From assembly GCA_048941285.1 (NCBI GenBank), contig JBHLNS010000030.1, positions 1 to 43,014 on the forward strand: a stretch of DNA of 43,014 bases, written 5' to 3'. This document shows positions 1,763 to 34,726 of this stretch, in pieces. The first letter of the stretch is position 1, and each line of letters starts with the position of its first letter. The position numbers and the translations under genes are program-made. Source of the stretch: Promethearchaeota archaeon. Lineage in GTDB: Archaea; Asgardarchaeota; Lokiarchaeia; Sigyniarchaeales; SOKP01. The notes under the pieces were generated by a model. That model saw nothing but the letters and a program-made list of their open reading frames with translations, ran no database searches and had not been told where the DNA came from.

Positions 1763-2266
1763 CTAACTTTTTTCTTTTATTGCTGATAAAGGACTTTTTG
1801 GCGTAAAACCAATAAGATCTTCTTCCTCTCTTTTAACAATATAGGAAGGAGCATTTATTTTTTTTCCCCGAACTTGGATATGTCCATGAGTTATATATTG
1901 TCTTGCTTGATAAACGGTACTGGCGAGTCCTTTTTCATAAACAAGAGTCTGGAGTCTTCTTTTTAAAAGGTCTTCAGTTGTTAGCAGTAATACATCCTCA
2001 AACTCTGCTTCAGAGCCAATGATACCTAATCTATTTAGTTTCTGAATTAAAGTTTGCTGGACTTCTTTAGCACGTTCTGTAGACAATGTTCTGGACTGTC
2101 TTGCGATATCACGCCAATTTCCGAGCATTGTACGCATTTTCCAATATTCTCGCTTATTTCTTAGTCCATATTTACCAAGAAATTCGAGTTCTTCCATTAT
2201 TCTGTCTCTTTGAAATGGATGTTTTGGTTTTTTAAATTTCCTCTTTAAACGTCTGGGGTCTCCCAT
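1763..2266 (-). CDS. rps4: 30S ribosomal protein uS4 (archaeal S4)
   Basis: MGDP..KF..PKHP, YGLRNKRE, RRLQT, ARQYITHGHI motifs; SD GGGTGA upstream. Confidence 0.97.
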   Translation of the reverse strand: MGDPRRLKRKFKKPKHPFQRDRIMEELEFLGKYGLRNKREYWKMRTMLGNWRDIARQSRTLSTERAKEVQQTLIQKLNRLGIIGSEAEFEDVLLLTTEDLLKRRLQTLVYEKGLASTVYQARQYITHGHIQVRGKKINAPSYIVKREEEDLIGFTPKSPLSAIKEKS

Positions 2267-2284
2267 TTTTTCACCCTTATCTAA

Positions 2285-2782
2285 TTATTTTTTTACTTGT
2301 TGTTGACCTTTTTTTCGTCTCATGACACCTACAACTAGACCATGGCGTCCGGTACTTTTTGTTCTTTGACCGCGTACTTTTAATCTTAAGTGATGTCGCA
2401 CGCCTTTGTAACTCTTTATCTTCTTCATTCTATCGACATCTCTTCTGACAGTTATCTCTAGCTTATTTCCAATTATATGAAGATCCTCACCTGTACGTAG
2501 ATCTTTTGGTCGATTTACCATCCAATTAGGAACACCATTTTCAACAGGGTTCATAATTATCTCTTCAATTTTGTTTAGATCTTTTTCACCAATAGCTCCT
2601 ATTCTTAGATTAGGATCTATTGCTGCTACTTTAACTATAGCTTGAGCGAATCTTCTACCTATGCCTCTAATCTGTGTTAAGGCATGTTCAACTTTGGCAT
2701 TTCCATCCACTTGTGTTCTTAGTTTACGAAAAAATACTTTTTCACGAAAATTTTTTGGCCGAACAGCAGATAAAGAACTCAT
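2285..2782 (-). CDS. rps13: 30S ribosomal protein uS13 (archaeal S13, eukaryotic S18-type)
   Basis: ALTQIRGIGRRFA, P.W..NR.KD..TG, SYKGVRH...LKVRGQRTKSTGR. Confidence 0.97.
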   Translation of the reverse strand: MSSLSAVRPKNFREKVFFRKLRTQVDGNAKVEHALTQIRGIGRRFAQAIVKVAAIDPNLRIGAIGEKDLNKIEEIIMNPVENGVPNWMVNRPKDLRTGEDLHIIGNKLEITVRRDVDRMKKIKSYKGVRHHLRLKVRGQRTKSTGRHGLVVGVMRRKKGQQQVKK

Positions 2783-2913
2783 ACGAACTCAATCAATTAA
2801 TTTTTTGTTTTCTTTTTCGATTTAATGGTAGTAAATACAGAATTTAATATTAAATTTTTGGTTTTCCTTGAGGAGAAGTTGGAGGATTCATAGATTTCTT
2901 AAAACTTAAAATT

Positions 2914-4407
2914 CTAATAATGTGGAACTCTCTTATTTTCTTCTAATTTTAAAGTTATATGCTTTTTACTCTTAGTTTTTTTGGAATTAGCAATTTTTTC
3001 TAATAAGGATAAACCGGGTTTCACGTCTGCTATTGGTTTGGATTCAATTAATTTGTTTTTAATTAACTCATTATATAATTCCATTCCTTTCTCAGTCCTA
3101 ATTAGGACTGTGTTCCATCCTGAAGGAGATCCTATTGATCCAATTGATATATCTGCTGATTCAGATGTTAAATCATAACACATTTCACAATCTTCTCTTG
3201 CTAAATGTGAAATTTCTTTAATTGGAATATTTAGTTCATCTCCATTTTTAGTATAAACAAAGAATTTTCCTTTATTAATGTCCATTTTCTTTGCGTTATT
3301 AATATCAATGTTTAGTTTCTTACAAATATTTAAAATAGATTCGTAAGAAAAAGATTCCATACAGAAGATACCAATTCTATATTCCACATTATTTACTGAT
3401 GGAAATCCTATGTTATAAATATTGGATTTTAGAAGAGCTTGCATTTGGCAAGGTACTCCTACAACCGCAATTTTTTTCCCATTTAATTCGTTTTCATTCA
3501 ATAATTGTAAATTAGGATTGTTCACATATTTAGTACCTGCTGAAGAGAGGATATCTTCCTTGTTTTTAATTAGAATTGGTTCAGGTCGCCATAAAGTATT
3601 ACTCATTTTGGCTCCAATTGCTAAATTAATTTTATTTTTTTCTAAAAGATACTGTATACAAGTGCTTGAAATGCCTCCATCTTGACAAATTTCAGATATT
3701 TCTTTTATTTTAGTTCTTGCGGAATAGGCTTCAATATAATGTCCAATTTTACCATAATTTTTAATTTCAGAAGCATGTTCCTGAGTCATATTTAAGATTT
3801 TAACTGGTAAATAAGTCCTAGGACAAACAAAATAGCATAAGCCACACCTAATGCATTTATCTTCATCAATTTTTCCAAAACCATTATAAATACGAAGACA
3901 ATTTACTGGACAGATTCCAGCACAGAGCCCGCAACCTGAACAATTTTTAGATTCAAATATAACCTTTACAGGTTCATAAATTGTTTTGAGTTTTGAAATT
4001 TCTCCGTCTAAAACTTGGATTGAAAAATCATTGAAGATTAGATTTTCAGGATTATCTTCATCTCCTTCAATTTCATCATATAATTCTTCCACAATTATAA
4101 GTCTCTCATTTCTAAGTAATTCGAATAAACTTAATGTTTTAGTTAAATCAAGAGAATTAGTTTTAGAAAATATGCTTAAAGTTTTGAGATTATTATCAGA
4201 ATTTTTTTTTAAAAAATTAAATAAAGAGTATTTTAATTTTTCTTCATCTAACATTCTATAAAGGATAGTATCATACTCTATTTCATTATATATTCCAGCT
4301 TCTAAAATTTCACGTTTAGCATCAATAAACGCTCGAATTCTATATGAATCTAATGCATCTGCTAGATTTTTTAAAAATTCCCATGAAAGATTATTTTCAA
4401 GACTCAT
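2914..4407 (-). CDS. Coenzyme F420 hydrogenase/dehydrogenase beta-subunit family protein (FrhB/FdhB/FpoF-like) with 2x[4Fe-4S] domain and about 140-aa N-terminal extension
   Basis: CSGCGLCAGICP and CIRCGLCYFVCP ferredoxin motifs; FrhB motifs QDGG, AGTKY, VGVPCQ, IGIFCMESF, C..CYD....ADISIGSIGSP.GWNTV. Confidence 0.9.
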   Translation of the reverse strand: MSLENNLSWEFLKNLADALDSYRIRAFIDAKREILEAGIYNEIEYDTILYRMLDEEKLKYSLFNFLKKNSDNNLKTLSIFSKTNSLDLTKTLSLFELLRNERLIIVEELYDEIEGDEDNPENLIFNDFSIQVLDGEISKLKTIYEPVKVIFESKNCSGCGLCAGICPVNCLRIYNGFGKIDEDKCIRCGLCYFVCPRTYLPVKILNMTQEHASEIKNYGKIGHYIEAYSARTKIKEISEICQDGGISSTCIQYLLEKNKINLAIGAKMSNTLWRPEPILIKNKEDILSSAGTKYVNNPNLQLLNENELNGKKIAVVGVPCQMQALLKSNIYNIGFPSVNNVEYRIGIFCMESFSYESILNICKKLNIDINNAKKMDINKGKFFVYTKNGDELNIPIKEISHLAREDCEMCYDLTSESADISIGSIGSPSGWNTVLIRTEKGMELYNELIKNKLIESKPIADVKPGLSLLEKIANSKKTKSKKHITLKLEENKRVPHY

Positions 4408-4440
4408 AATTTTATGAAATACTTTTTAAATACAAATTTT

Positions 4441-4500
4441 TCCGAAAACCCGGGCTTGGGGTTAGTTTCTTTTCAACTATTATTTTTTTGAAAAGATCAT
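4441..4500 (-). promoter_or_regulatory. Candidate SECIS-like structured RNA 3' of mvhD
   Basis: One nt after the mvhD TAG: AUGA, then a perfect 9-bp stem UCUUUUCAA/UUGAAAAGA with an A-rich 11-nt loop, then a GC-rich AACCC/GGGUU hairpin. The 3' GA of a canonical kink-turn core is not cleanly placed. Confidence 0.35.
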
Positions 4501-4501
4501 T

Positions 4502-4927
4502 CTAATTCGGATTATATTTTGGTAATGGAGGGAGACTATGAATTTTGGATGAGATATCTTCGACTGATCTTATAAATTTTTCAACTTCTGCCGCTGAACA
4601 AAAATATTGCTGAACTCTTTCTTCAGAAATACCTTCATGTTTTAATAATTTCTTTAATGTTAGAACGTGTTCATATGTAGTAGTATTACCATTTCCAAAT
4701 TCACATTCTCCTTCTTTTCAAGAAATTATTGCAACACCATCAGCACCATTTAAAAAAGCCTCCATAATTAGATGGATCCCAATTCTTCCAGTACATCTCA
4801 CACGAATGAGATGAAAGTCTGTAGAGTAAGATTTTCTCGTAACTCCTGTTAAGTCTGCTGCTGAATACCCTCACTTATCACAACCAAAAGCTATAATTCT
4901 TCTTGAATTATTTTTTTTAGTAGCCAT
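4502..4927 (-). CDS. mvhD: Hydrogenase iron-sulfur delta subunit MvhD/VhuD, selenoprotein with 2 Sec (141 aa); absent from the ORF track
   Basis: Manual translation: MATKKNNSRRIIAFGCDK-U19-GYSAADLTG...IRVRCTGRI...EAFLNGADGVAIIS-U70-KEGECEFGNGN...GISEERV...CSAAE...LPPLPKYNPN-TAG. TGA codons at 4871-4873 and 4718-4720 occupy conserved Cys positions; SD GAGGT upstream. Confidence 0.93.
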
Positions 4928-4939
4928 TATTTTTTACCT

Positions 4940-6952
4940 CTAATTTACTGATTGGTCAACACTTTCAGATGACACATCTATTAATTCTGCTTCACTGCAT
5001 CCAATACCTTTAATTTCTTGAGTAAATTGTTTATCACGGTAATATTTTAAGTCAATAGCTCTTGCTGGACAAGATGATATGCACACACCACAACCTTTAC
5101 ATTTTAAATCGTCAACTTCTGCAATTTCACTTTCATTTACTTTTATTGCTTCGTATGTACAGAGTTTTTCACACCTGCGACAGCCCATACAGAGATTCTT
5201 ATCTACTTCAGCAATAATTAATTCTTGTTTGATAGTATCATGCGATAAAATCGTTGATGCTTTACTTGCTGCCGCCAATGCAGAAGATACTGAATAGGGA
5301 ATGTTTTTTGGCCCCGCAGCACAGCCAGCTATGTATATTCCTAAATCCTTTGTTTCTTGTGGGTTTAAGCATCCATGAATTTCAGAGAGGAATCCTCCGG
5401 GACCTTTAGTTAATCCCATTACATTAATCATTTCTTCAGTGCCTTTTGACGGAATCATTCCTGTTGATAAGACGACTAGATCAGCATCAATTTTTACAAT
5501 TTCTCCAGTTAAGGATGAATAAGCTCTAACTTTTAGCTTATTTGTTTTAGTATCTTCTATAATTTCACCTACCTTTCCTCTAATCATTCGAATGCCTGAT
5601 TCTCGTATTTTTCTATAGTATTCTTCATTGCCTTTATCTGTTGTTCGAATATCAATATAGAACATGATCACGTCCATTTCTGGATATTCTTGCTTTAATA
5701 ATTGAGCATTTTTAAGTGCCACACTACAACAAACAAATGAACAATAAGGATTTGCATTTACATCCCTAGAGCCTACACATTGAATCATTACAACAGTTTT
5801 TGGTGTTTCTCCGTTTGATATTCTATATACATGTCCTCCAGTAGGGCCAATCGGACTTAAAAGTCTTTCTAATTCTATCTGAGTTATAACGTCAGGATAG
5901 TATCCATAATTATATTCGTTTGACTTCCATATTGGATACTCGTCCCAACCTGTGGCAACAATTACAGCTCCTACTTTAACATCTACATATTCTACTTCTT
6001 GTTCAAAATTTATTGCTTCAGCTGGACATATGCGTTCACAATTTTTACAATCGATACATACACTTCTGTCCATCACAGCTAATTTAGGTACTGCTTGCGG
6101 AAAAGGTATATAAATTGCTCCTCTCTCACCTATACCTCTATCAAATTCACTAGGAACTTTGATAGGACATTTAGTTGTACATAATCCACACCCTGTACAT
6201 TTTTTTTCGTCTACATAACGGGGGTTTTTCCGGATCTTAACTTTATAATCTCCAGGAATACCACTAAATTCCACTACATCACTATATGTAAATAGGTTTA
6301 TATTTGGGTGTTTTGATGCATTTACCATTATTGGTGCCAAAACTCATATTCCACAATCATCAGTTGGATAAATTCTATCTAACTGTGCCATTTTACCTCC
6401 AATAGTAGCTTCTTTCTCTACTAAATACACAGGGGTCCCTTGATTAGCTAAATCTAAAGCAGCATTCATCCCAGCAATACCTGCACCGACAATTAACACA
6501 GCTTTTTCAACAGGAATTTCTTTTCTAGGAATATTTTCCAATTCACGGGCACGATTGATTCCAGCTTTAACTAATCTTATAGCTTTCTCAGTTGCTTTAT
6601 TCTTATCATCCCTATGAACAAAAGAACAGTGTTCTCTTAAATTTACCATTTGAAAAAAATACGGACTTAAACCAGCTTCAACTAGTACAGCTCTATAGGT
6701 TGGTTCATGAATTTTTGGGGTACAAGCAGCAACTACTACTCTATTTAGATCTTGTTCTAAAATATCATTTCTAATAGTATTTTGTCCAGGATCTGAACAT
6801 GTAAATGAATTAACTCTAGAAATGACCACATTTGGTAAGTTTTCTATTGCGGTTTTAACTGCATCACAATCAACAGAAGCTTTAATATTCACGCCTCACT
6901 CGCATACATAGACTCCAATTCTCGGTACATCCTTGGTCTGTTTATCAGACAT
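4940..6952 (-). CDS. hdrA: Heterodisulfide reductase subunit A (FAD, Fe-S), selenoprotein with 2 Sec (670 aa); joins track ORFs 6344..6892 and 4940..6340
   Basis: ATG 6952 behind AGGTGA. MSDKQTKDVPRIGVYVCE-U19-GVNI (TGA 6896-6898) and LDRIYPTDDCGI-U203-VLAP (TGA 6344-6346) lie in one frame. ACTP..HE, NLREHCSFVH, GAGIAG, QCVGSRD, YCSFVCC and two 2x[4Fe-4S] domains are present. Confidence 0.95.
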
Positions 6953-7472: not shown

Positions 7473-8762
7473 TTGCTTGATATTGAATTATTCAGAAAAA
7501 ATCTTGAAGATATAATTGAGTCAGAAAGAAAAAGGTTTAAGGAAACTTCAAATGCGGAAAAAGTTTTAGAATATGATATAAAATGGAGAAATATTTTACA
7601 AGAATTAGAAGATTTAAGAAAAGAAAGAAATGAAATATCAATTAAAATCGGAGAATTTAAAAAATCCGGCAATAAAAAGAAAGCTGCTGAATCGATAGCT
7701 AATTCAAAAAGAATAAAGGATAAAATTGAAGAATTAGAAAAATTGAAAGTCGAATATTTGGAACTGCGAGAAAAATATCGATATAAGGTTGGAAATATCT
7801 TGCACGAATCTGTTCCAACAGGACAAACTGATGAAGACAATGAAATTCTAAGAACTGTTGGGAGTTTACCGAAATTTGATTTTAAACCCCTCTCTCATGT
7901 CGATTTAGTCTCTAAAATTGGAGGAGTAGATACAAAAAAGGCTTCAGAATTAGTTGGATCAAGATTTTACTATTTGAAAGGGGATCTAGTATTTCTTAAT
8001 TTAGCCCTTTTAAAATTTGCTTTGGACAGACTAATAGAAAAGAATTATATTCCTATATGGCCTCCATACTTTACTAAATATGAAGTAATGAAAGCTGCAG
8101 CAGAATTGACAGATTTCGAAGAACAATTATACAAAATTCAAGATGAAGATTTATATATGATTGCTACTTCTGAGCAAACTTTAGCAGCTTATCATTATGA
8201 TGAAATAATCGAACCAGAGAAATTACCAATAAAGTATGCTGGAATTTCCTCATGTTTTAGGAGAGAAGCGGGATCGCATGGAAAAGATACCTTAGGAATT
8301 TTTAGAGTTCATCGATTTGAAAAAGTTGAACAGTTTATTTTCAGTAAACCTGAAGAATCTTGGATTTTTTTTGAAGAATTAATTAATAACGCTGAAGAAT
8401 TGTATAAAGAGTTGAAAATTCCATATAGAATAGCAAATATAGCTTCTGGAGAACTGAATGATAATGCAGCCAAAAAATACGATTTAGAAGCATGGTTCCC
8501 TGCTTCAGAGACATATCGTGAATTAGTATCATGCAGTAATTGTTTAGATTATCAAGCAAGGAAATTAAAAATACGGATGGGAATAGTGGGATCACAACAA
8601 GCAAAAGAGGTTCCGCATACATTAAATTCAACCGCAATCGCAACTGAGCGTACAATTTGTTGTATTCTCGAAAATTATCAAAATAAGGATCATTCAATTA
8701 CAATTCCAGAAGCACTTCAAAAATATATGAATGGTAAAAAAATTATTAAACCAATAAAATAA
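7473..8762 (+). CDS. serS: Seryl-tRNA synthetase (standard class II type)
   Basis: N-terminal coiled coil; IATSEQ, CFRREAG, GIFRVHRFEKVEQF, ELVSCSNC.DYQAR, HTLNSTA.ATER. Confidence 0.97.
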   Translation: MLDIELFRKNLEDIIESERKRFKETSNAEKVLEYDIKWRNILQELEDLRKERNEISIKIGEFKKSGNKKKAAESIANSKRIKDKIEELEKLKVEYLELREKYRYKVGNILHESVPTGQTDEDNEILRTVGSLPKFDFKPLSHVDLVSKIGGVDTKKASELVGSRFYYLKGDLVFLNLALLKFALDRLIEKNYIPIWPPYFTKYEVMKAAAELTDFEEQLYKIQDEDLYMIATSEQTLAAYHYDEIIEPEKLPIKYAGISSCFRREAGSHGKDTLGIFRVHRFEKVEQFIFSKPEESWIFFEELINNAEELYKELKIPYRIANIASGELNDNAAKKYDLEAWFPASETYRELVSCSNCLDYQARKLKIRMGIVGSQQAKEVPHTLNSTAIATERTICCILENYQNKDHSITIPEALQKYMNGKKIIKPIK

Positions 8763-10014: not shown

Positions 10015-10749
10015 TCATAATTTTCTTCTGCCAATTTTAAAACTTCTATTATTATTAGCATCTATTTTTTTGAGCGCTATTTTTAAATTATTTTGTAAAA
10101 ATCTAAAGACATCAGTATCCCTTAAATTAAAGACTTTTAGGTATTCATATCCTAAAACCAAATCTTGTTTAATATCTATATCAAATCCCGCTCTAAAAGA
10201 GTCATAAACAGCAATTTTATTTATGCCTTTCTTAGATGCATTATTAAGCAAGGCTACTAAAGAAGGAGTATTTGGATCTGAAAAATAGGATGAAATGATA
10301 TTAGGTGGGTTCCTTGCAAGAATTGAAATCCCTGCGGAATGAATAGCGGGGCAAATTACTAATTGATTCTCTTGGATTAATTCATTAATTTCATAAAAAT
10401 TTTTTGAGGATACTAATATTAAATCCAAAAAAGAAAACACTGTTTGCCTTGCATCATATTTTTTTATTGCAATATTATTAAGATCTTCTATGACCTCATC
10501 AAATGATTTAAGGGGGGATGTTAATTCCTCTTTTATCCCAATTAAATCATAATCTCTAGCAAGCTCCAATATTTCAGGAGTGTTGCAATATACAATCTTT
10601 TGATCGAAACAAGCTACATCTTTCAATGTCTTTCCAAGATCCTTAAACATAGCAATTGTTAAATCTTTTAACTGTTTATTGGAGAAACAATCTCTAAGGC
10701 GAGATTTTGTCCTTGTCAACGGAGCCACGGGAATAAGTAAAATACTCAT
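10015..10749 (-). CDS. cofC: 2-phospho-L-lactate/PEP guanylyltransferase (F420 biosynthesis)
   Basis: LIPV....TKSRL...F......L...M..D N-terminus and FDID...DL C-terminal motif. Confidence 0.85.
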   Translation of the reverse strand: MSILLIPVAPLTRTKSRLRDCFSNKQLKDLTIAMFKDLGKTLKDVACFDQKIVYCNTPEILELARDYDLIGIKEELTSPLKSFDEVIEDLNNIAIKKYDARQTVFSFLDLILVSSKNFYEINELIQENQLVICPAIHSAGISILARNPPNIISSYFSDPNTPSLVALLNNASKKGINKIAVYDSFRAGFDIDIKQDLVLGYEYLKVFNLRDTDVFRFLQNNLKIALKKIDANNNRSFKIGRRKL

Positions 10750-34621: not shown

Positions 34622-34726
34622 CGCAGCTGGAGGGATTTGAACCCCCGAGCGCTAACGCGCACCGGCTCTCTTGATTATTTTGTCTGACACTCGAGGCCGG
34701 CGTCTTACCATCTAGGCTACAGCTGC
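34622..34726 (-). tRNA. tRNA-Ser(CGA) with 22-nt intron at position 37/38 (34668-34689)
   Basis: Acceptor GCAGCTG/CAGCTGC, anticodon stem CCGGC/GCCGG, anticodon CGA at 34691-34693, long variable arm GCGC-GTTA-GCGC, TTCAAAT loop, discriminator G, no encoded CCA. Confidence 0.93.

Follow-up and report, generated by a model that had tools for sequence, protein, structure and literature searches.

Does the 532-nucleotide gap between hdrA and an frhB-like gene in a Promethearchaeota archaeon contain a selenoprotein gene that conventional gene calling overlooks, and if so, how would its UGA codons be read? We addressed this question in a stretch of 43,014 nucleotides (contig JBHLNS010000030.1 of assembly GCA_048941285.1, positions 1 to 43,014 of the forward strand; 29.7% G+C), hereafter the window, whose coordinates are used throughout; hdrA, the gene in the gap and the frhB-like gene all lie on its minus strand. 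An earlier note, written from the sequence alone, had proposed that the gap holds a complete gene of 141 codons for MvhD/VhuD, in which TGA codons 19 and 70, both at positions of selenocysteine (Sec), are the only stops. We now hold with high confidence that this is an Asgard vhuD gene, in which both UGA codons specify Sec by means of a Loki-type Sec insertion sequence (lokiSECIS) that is likely to be shared with hdrA, and that its product is a [2Fe-2S] adaptor to HdrA.

A vhuD gene with two in-frame UGA codons

4502..4927, minus strand: vhuD (mvhD) coding sequence, 141 residues and a TAG stop codon, with two in-frame UGA codons that almost certainly encode Sec (translation with TGA as Sec, Pfam, PDB)
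4871..4873, minus strand: UGA codon 19 (CxxU), aligned to X in 9sfi_K and to Cys in Cys-type chains
4718..4720, minus strand: UGA codon 70 (U-K-E-G-E-C), probable [2Fe-2S] ligand position, aligned to X in 9sfi_K and to Cys in Cys-type chains

Reading the frame from its ATG (4927-4925) to its TAG (4504-4502) with TGA as Sec (U) gives 141 residues in which codons 19 and 70 are the only TGA codons. The earlier note was correct in this and in its coordinates, the strand that it left unsaid being the minus strand, and the motifs that it listed are present in the translation as FGCDKU-GYSAAD, RVRCTGR and GADGVAIISU-KEGEC, with residue 19 in the context FGCDK-U-GYSAADLTGVTR. Its measure of the gap is also accurate, since the lowest base of hdrA is 4940 and the frhB-like gene starts at 4407, and the gene is indeed absent from the list of open reading frames (ORFs): within 4502-4927, translation table 11 lists a single ORF of at least 40 residues, a 44-residue fragment at 4740..4874.

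The vhuD product matches the Pfam family FlpD (PF02662, described in Pfam as 'methyl-viologen-reducing hydrogenase delta subunit') with an E-value of 4.9e-38 and 130.4 bits (cut-off 22.3). Residues 11-132 align with profile positions 1-122 of 123 and this alignment spans both TGA codons; because a full-length match of this strength runs across both of them, the identity of the gene is not a matter of chance. Six distinct solved MvhD/VhuD sequences in the PDB match the product (E 2.8e-26 to 3.5e-22), and the cysteine set of the family (N-terminal CxxC, RCTG and CxxxxC) is present as C16, U19, C45, U70 and C75 opposite the Cys or X residues of five solved chains. Alignment of U19 and U70 with homologues, which had been suggested as a check, places both opposite Cys in the four Cys-type chains 5odc_D, 9sw2_D, 7bkb_F and 8rvu_F and opposite a pair of non-standard residues, written X, in 9sfi_K (Methanococcus maripaludis VhuD), in agreement with the proposal that the TGA codons occupy the Sec positions of Methanococcales VhuD. 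The nearest relatives in the genome collection, at 70-91% identity, all come from Asgard metagenome-assembled genomes (named Promethearchaeota/Promethearchaeia or otherwise as Asgard). We identify 4502..4927 as vhuD (also called mvhD or frhD) from an Asgard archaeon of the Loki type, a member of the Promethearchaeota.

Conservation of the UGA codons and selection beyond them

Conservation of the two codons was counted over 36 full-length vhuD loci and the partial loci L040, L041 and L043. Codon 19 is TGA in every full-length locus (36/36) and in L040 and L043, giving 38/38 in total. Codon 70 is TGA in 34 of the 36 full-length loci and TGT (Cys) in the remaining two; with the partial loci, in which it is TGA in L040 and L041 and Cys in L043, the counts become 36/39 and 3/39. 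An exchange of Sec for Cys at one site, together with complete retention of the other, is a classical selenoprotein signature, and the universality of Sec19 in relatives when compared with the swapping of Sec70, taken with the place of the equivalent MvhD Cys16 between cluster and flavin (see below), hints that of the two selenols the one at position 19 is functionally critical.

These counts bear on a different account of the locus, in which vhuD is a decaying pseudogene, a copy of mvhD that has acquired two nonsense mutations and is one of 14 FlpD-like copies. The genome does contain 14 FlpD matches, and the 11 that have no internal stop codon could cover the function; the others are two copies with two TGA codons each and one with a TGA and a TAA. 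However, the same TGA codons are kept in 36/36 and 34/36 full-length loci. The share of substitutions relative to the window that falls in third codon positions is 0.78 in codons 10-18, 0.80 in codons 20-69 and 0.63 in codons 71-136, and since this bias persists after each TGA, purifying selection on the protein continues past both of them. There are no frameshifts, and the gene is followed by a conserved SECIS, described below. The conservation of this element, its covariation and the codon-position pattern refute the pseudogene in practice, and we consider it extremely improbable.

RNA libraries of a single study yielded short contigs that are at best 95-99% alike to the window; these extend over 4507-4946, and so over both TGA codons and the point where hdrA meets vhuD, as well as over parts of hdrA and almost none of the frhB-like gene. 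They differ from the window by one indel, of 3 nucleotides and in frame, and neither TGA is altered among 40 of the 88 contig-window differences. The four metatranscriptome runs of that study contained only 5-6% of the sampled words, and the contigs, which are possibly derived from DNA or from a close relative, provide a weak hint of expression.

We also considered whether UGA is a sense codon for a standard amino acid throughout the genome, either Trp or Gly (genetic codes 4 and 25). In line with this, 17/17 aligned database relatives (picked among 120 listed of 299 matches) carry W at both sites, but these residues are there because gene callers using code 4 translate TGA. In the window itself TGA behaves as an ordinary stop: TGA closes four long ORFs, a second stop in the same frame comes 0-21 codons later, and one of the four carries a TGA-TAA tandem. 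At the two vhuD sites the homologous residue is Cys or Sec and never Trp or Gly, codon 70 is Cys in three relatives, and the genome encodes both a tRNA-Sec and SepSecS, so that we attach next to no probability to a reassigned UGA. From sequence comparison, both vhuD UGA codons are almost certainly decoded as Sec, and we infer that Sec is inserted at both.

A Loki-type SECIS immediately downstream of vhuD

4466..4500, minus strand: Loki-type SECIS core (sequence reading, layout kept in relatives, covariation)
4500-4497, minus strand: SECIS AUGA, one base after the vhuD UAG stop codon
4496-4488 and 4476-4468, minus strand: 9-nucleotide arms of the SECIS stem, UCUUUUCAA and UUGAAAAGA, respectively
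4487-4477, minus strand: apical loop of 11 nucleotides, A-rich and with a final G, AAAAAUAAUAG
4467-4466, minus strand: AA on the 3' side of the stem

The SECIS was compared in 38 sequences, comprising 37 loci and the window, of which 36 are distinct and were used for covariation. The layout of AUGA, 9-nucleotide arm, 11-nucleotide loop and 9-nucleotide arm is found in 38/38, and the AUGA and the final G of the loop are invariant. Seven of the nine stem pairs change on both sides; none of 500 shuffles reaches most of the observed measures (further standard pair types are reached by 1/500), and no control with a slid register comes near the observed covariation. In 13 of the 36 distinct sequences the stem pair nearest the G.A pairs is not formed; kink-turns tolerate an unpaired first stem pair at that position.

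No Rfam SECIS model gave a match at its gathering score in the window, nor one at an E-value of up to 10 in 4380-4560. Our own model of the fold, R1, has a single match on this contig and finds the same fold at five other places in the genome (E 2.7e-5 or better), each just 3' of an ORF with an in-frame TGA.

The location of the element at the 3' end of a gene, followed by U-rich sequence, would also fit a terminator or an mRNA-stability element, in which case the UGA codons would be read through independently of a SECIS, by near-cognate decoding as Cys or Trp, or would mostly terminate translation. The invariant AUGA, the A-rich start of the loop and its final G are nevertheless specific to SECIS elements, and the five further R1 matches all lie just downstream of ORFs with in-frame TGA codons. 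We therefore judge SECIS-independent read-through to be very unlikely and retain Sec insertion directed by the lokiSECIS, which presumably resides on the same mRNA as the vhuD UGA codons.

The neighbouring genes and their stop codons

4940..6952, minus strand: hdrA, 670 residues from ATG at 6952, TAG stop codon at 4942-4940 (translation, PDB)
4936..4940, minus strand: GAGGU, Shine-Dalgarno-like, 8 nucleotides 5' of the vhuD ATG (read from sequence)
2914..4407, minus strand: frhB-like gene, 497 residues, starting 94 nucleotides 3' of the vhuD stop codon (Pfam, PDB)

The start of hdrA at 6952 is the likely one, judging from where the PDB alignment begins. Its product, read through UGA codons at 6898-6896 and 6346-6344, matches the HdrA chain 9sfi_A with an E-value of 1.1e-216; the first UGA aligns with a Cys of this chain and the second with its X, which is Sec197 in M. 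maripaludis. Exactly two TGA codons are present in 29/29 full-length hdrA relatives. The R1 search, with its one match on the contig located 3' of vhuD, revealed no SECIS of hdrA's own, and because only one is found, sharing of this SECIS by hdrA and vhuD is the economical reading and most likely the correct one. The first G of the GAGGU sequence is the final base of the hdrA TAG stop codon, and GAGGU is the putative ribosome-binding site of vhuD.

The frhB-like gene is located 3' of vhuD in 37/38 sequences. The N-terminal part of its product has no assigned fold; after it come a ferredoxin domain (2x[4Fe-4S]) and then the N- and C-terminal FrhB domains (FrhB_FdhB_N, E 8.4e-18; FrhB_FdhB_C, E 7.3e-43). 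The product matches FrhB in the PDB (6qgr_B) with an E-value of 2e-62.

The earlier note had pointed out that TAG is the stop codon of hdrA, of vhuD and of the frhB-like gene, which is the case, and had taken this as the expected result of UGA recoding on their mRNA, a rationale that applies to only one of the three. For hdrA it is borne out, since among the 33 of 38 sequences in which the end of the gene was found the stop is TAA in 25, TAG in 8 and TGA in none. In the case of vhuD, pairing of the UAG with CUA within the SECIS (see below) is the better account of the stop codon. The frhB-like gene is free of a constraint on UGA stops, because among 35 sequences with a visible stop it ends in TAG in 19, TAA in 12 and TGA in 4. 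For the window as a whole, the stop codons of the 30 long ORFs (at least 150 residues) are TAA in 23, TGA in 4 and TAG in 3. Curiously, all three of these TAG-ending ORFs (hdrA, the frhB-like gene and the gene for ribosomal protein S4) fall within 1763-6340 on the minus strand, with vhuD adding a fourth TAG. Sequence overlaps account for the TAG of hdrA and of vhuD, and not for that of the frhB-like gene or of ribosomal protein S4.

Sec machinery and evidence weighing against the assignment

The genome encodes a tRNA-Sec (59.4 bits, over the cut-off) and, 72 nucleotides from it, SepSecS (472.6 bits, over the cut-off). A tandem of two selD genes with one TGA apiece is located at C39:20541-22670, and these genes also score over the cut-off. 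The SepSecS gene, the tRNA-Sec and an EFsec-like gene are located together within 6.5 kb (G000:C52:86888-93350). A seryl-tRNA synthetase gene, at 7473-8762 on the plus strand of the window, is divergent from the hdrA-vhuD pair with its four Sec codons, and the same neighbour is found in 21 of 39 related loci. Seryl-tRNA synthetase is the enzyme that first charges tRNA-Sec; the adjacency may be plain conserved gene order.

Several observations weigh against the assignment as a whole or parts of it. The EFsec-like gene, about 4 kb beyond SepSecS, scores 239.7 bits, just below the 242.25 of the bacterial selB model, and a PSTK-like gene (E 6.8e-45, 153.9 bits) lies below its cut-off of 290.5. The RNA-library contigs leave the SECIS uncovered, cannot prove transcription and do not reveal strand, transcript ends or operon structure. 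Co-transcription with the frhB-like gene is called into question by the lack of a visible Shine-Dalgarno sequence for this gene, by its location 94 nucleotides downstream behind a U-rich stretch, and by its TGA stop in 4/35 relatives. Finally, the core has AA after the stem where the consensus in the text of PMC4989117 (2016) has GA: AA is present in 36 of the 38 sequences, including the window, and GA in two. According to the available text of these sources, the AA variant is accepted for VhuU in PMC4989117, and PMC11227280 (2024) gives an AUGA_AA core for a number of Lokiarchaeia hdrA/frhD genes; AA in place of GA does not exclude membership of the lokiSECIS class.

Proposed function of VhuD and of its Sec residues

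In the mechanism that we propose, tRNA-Sec would decode both vhuD UGA codons under the direction of one eukaryote-like kink-turn SECIS, which most likely also serves the two hdrA UGA codons on a shared hdrA-vhuD transcript, giving four Sec codons over about 2.4 kb. A small protein carrying a [2Fe-2S] cluster, VhuD would dock on HdrA and relay electrons from an input module to the bifurcating flavin adenine dinucleotide (FAD) of HdrA; both the cluster and the docking are predicted from homology to solved complexes and from the adjacency to hdrA. The roles that we assign to the two Sec residues are likewise predictions.

In the part of PMC13580544 that was available, MvhD Cys16 and HdrA Cys202/Cys205 are presented as additional conserved cysteines in the space separating the [2Fe-2S] cluster from the FAD, and recent cryo-electron microscopy papers, as far as their texts were available, place MvhD Cys16 on the route by which electrons would reach the bifurcating FAD from the [2Fe-2S] cluster. 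The alignment offset equates window U19 with MvhD Cys16. The text of PMC13518236 places a Cys-Sec197 pair of HdrA between cluster A3 and the FAD, and this pair corresponds to a Cys and the second Sec of the window HdrA because of the shared DDCxx[C/U] motif; the same two residues would occupy the Cys202/Cys205 positions described in PMC13580544. If so, two of these three 'relay' positions would be Sec in the enzyme encoded in the window. U70 is probably a [2Fe-2S] ligand by elimination, since the remaining conserved residues C16, C45, U70 and C75 are all needed for the cluster. Placing both UGA codons at [2Fe-2S]-region cysteines, as the earlier note had done, is therefore only loosely right: U70 is the probable ligand, and U19, as the equivalent of MvhD Cys16 in the available text, belongs to the path from the cluster to the FAD.

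The FrhB-like protein would be the likely electron-input partner of VhuD, oxidising F420H2. A comparable F420H2-fed input is described for Elp proteins in the text of PMC13518236, and by analogy such an input to HdrA-VhuD is plausible because of the match to FrhB (E 2e-62), the presence elsewhere in the genome of CofH, CofD and CofE for F420 biosynthesis, all above their cut-offs, and a CofC-like gene. The latter lies in the window at 10015-10749 on the minus strand and scores 69.9 bits, under the cut-off. The electron-acceptor side, whether HdrBC or another, was not found in this gene row.

Comparison with known systems

For this lineage, the selenoprotein pair of HdrA and VhuD with one eukaryote-like SECIS in common is already known, having been described in 2016 and catalogued in 2024. 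As described in the available text of PMC4989117 (Mariotti 2016), the Lokiarchaeota VhuD has two Sec residues about 50 codons apart (19 and 70 in the window), and HdrA carries Sec at more than one position, among them the canonical site close to residue 200, as in the window. Also shared with the window are a single SECIS, located only 3' of vhuD, and a lokiSECIS with AUGA, a 9-bp stem and an 11-nucleotide loop whose first five bases are A and whose last two are AG; UGA is never the stop codon of hdrA, as is the case in the relatives of the window. Of the 38 sequences examined here, 36 differ from the consensus in that text by the AA after the stem. According to the text of PMC11227280 (Huang 2024), the FrhD/MvhD/VhuD family occurs in 57.3% of Sec-using Asgard genomes, and hdrA and frhD are always adjacent with one common SECIS; as far as that text goes, there is no difference of substance between the window and the Asgard type I eSECIS-like systems.

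The M. maripaludis VhuD (9sfi_K), as presented in the text of PMC13518236, shares with the window protein the fold family, both Sec positions and the U-K-x-x-E-C sequence after the second Sec, and is likewise a [2Fe-2S] adaptor between an input module and HdrA. Either the Vhu hydrogenase or Fdh acts as its input module, whereas the neighbour in the window is FrhB-like. Methanococcales, which are another domain-level lineage, further differ in having the archaeal SECIS with a GAA_A bulge, according to the text of PMC4989117, where the window has a eukaryote-like kink-turn. The Cys-type MvhD proteins of Methanothermobacter marburgensis and Methanothermococcus thermolithotrophicus (9sw2_D, 5odc_D) match over their full length (E 2.2e-24 to 2.8e-26) and have the same five conserved Cys positions, but carry Cys at both sites in question and, following the second, H..D in the place of the K..E of the window. 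The K and E that follow U70 in place of methanogen His68 and Asp71 are conservative variants according to the text of PMC13580544.

The value of the locus is accordingly that of an annotation fix, since gene callers split or miss vhuD and NCBI-style records end at its first UGA, and a more modest one as a clean, well-conserved example of the pair. The detail of the three-way junction considered below and the position of Sec19 on the path from cluster to flavin go slightly beyond the published text available to us.

A second two-TGA copy of FlpD is located elsewhere in the genome (C4:46721-47086), also 3' of a Sec-HdrA gene. Its SECIS core has the canonical AUGA..GA, the UGA of the AUGA likely serving as the stop codon of the gene.

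The SECIS as a possible three-way junction

4441..4511, minus strand: whole SECIS fold, possible three-way junction (comparative pairing, RNAalifold, minimum free energy folding, R1)
4511-4506 with 4446-4441, minus strand: P1, UCCGAA (end of the last three sense codons of vhuD) with UUCGGA
4504-4502 with 4465-4463, minus strand: P2, stop codon UAG with CUA, the canonical helix (C-helix) of the kink-turn
4501-4499, minus strand: kink-turn bulge AAU, 3 nucleotides, followed by G.A and A.A
4496-4488 with 4476-4468, minus strand: P3, the SECIS stem
4461-4459 with 4451-4449, minus strand: P4 hairpin, CCC with GGG and a loop of 7 nucleotides

The pairing around the core suggests that the hdrA-vhuD SECIS is a three-way junction and not a simple hairpin, with a closing helix formed by the last vhuD codons and with the UAG stop codon as the C-helix, a reading towards which we lean slightly. 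Over the 36 distinct sequences, 97.9% of the cells for the 21 pairs of the junction are paired and 11 pairs change on both sides, values that are reached by 0/500 shuffles. RNAalifold recovers P1, P3 and P4 unprompted, and the minimum free energy structure of the window sequence alone shows these helices too (z -2.53). For P1, P2 and P4 the support comes from few events, with one to three sequences per pair.

The codons that contribute to P1 provide a further line of evidence. The Pro codon in this helix is CCG in 37/38 sequences, although the long ORFs of the window use CCG least of all Pro codons (28/423), and the lone exception, L038 (GCG), has a compensating UUCGC on the opposite strand of P1. 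Retention of a rare codon, together with this compensation, argues for a constraint on the coding bases at the RNA level. The UAG triplet is also kept in 37/38 sequences, including L019 and L035, in which the frame ends elsewhere.

The texts of PMC4989117 and PMC11227280, figures and supplements excepted, make no mention of a junction or lower stem for the hdrA/frhD SECIS, and with respect to the text of PMC4989117, again figures and supplements excepted, the window SECIS differs in the inclusion of the stop codon and last sense codons in the fold, in the closing helix and in the third hairpin. Our literature search for an Asgard SECIS described as a three-way junction found none. If the junction forms, an mRNA occupied by ribosomes would be able either to support termination at UAG or to form the SECIS, but not both at once, and the third arm, with its UGC-containing loop, could dock an archaeal SECIS-binding factor. 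The proposed shape points to specific mutants that could be used in the archaeal SECIS reporter assays already available.

Other SECIS-associated ORFs and a further RNA

In addition to vhuD, several ORFs in the genome are followed by a Loki-type SECIS. At G000:C24:5603-6127 (minus strand; L068), an ORF for a protein of about 157 residues contains adjacent UGA codons (VVHAD-UU-ADVM) and is accompanied by a Loki-type SECIS at C24:5528-5605. The gene is located downstream of an SBF/Acr3-type transporter gene, and the protein has no match in Pfam. Members of its family occur in 33 of 41 related genomes, all 38 matches having at least two TGA codons, and in public records the sequence is ended at the first TGA (118 residues) or given with WW. 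By comparison with the available texts, it is neither the UxxC/UxxU PrxL of 2016 nor a member of any of the seven families of 2024, and its predicted structure, with a mean predicted local distance difference test score of 59.9, is too poor for a fold search.

A SECIS at G000:C67:9245-9327 (minus strand; L062; R1, 88.5 bits) directly follows a third Sec-hdrA paralogue (DDCAIU) with no vhuD between them, and this locus is therefore an exception to the rule that hdrA and vhuD are always in tandem. At the end of the HdrA encoded there is a short tail similar to VhuD's C-terminal helix.

Two shorter ORFs have similar arrangements. The first (G000:C65:271-516, minus strand; L063/L076) has 82 residues with a predicted membrane helix and the sequence GDG-U-GC, followed by a SECIS (57.3 bits); its single TGA is kept in matches from 10/41 related genomes, including G000, it belongs to no Pfam family, and we regard it as a candidate small selenoprotein. 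The second (G000:C36:38429-38653, plus strand; L064/L084) is a membrane ORF of 75 residues with two hydrophobic stretches and one TGA, with a SECIS 22 nucleotides further on (47.1 bits); it is present in only 2/41 genomes and is weakly supported.

ARAGORN reported no tRNA in the window. An Rfam search identified a tRNA of 105 nucleotides at 34622-34726 on the minus strand (43.4 bits), which ARAGORN had missed and which probably contains an intron.

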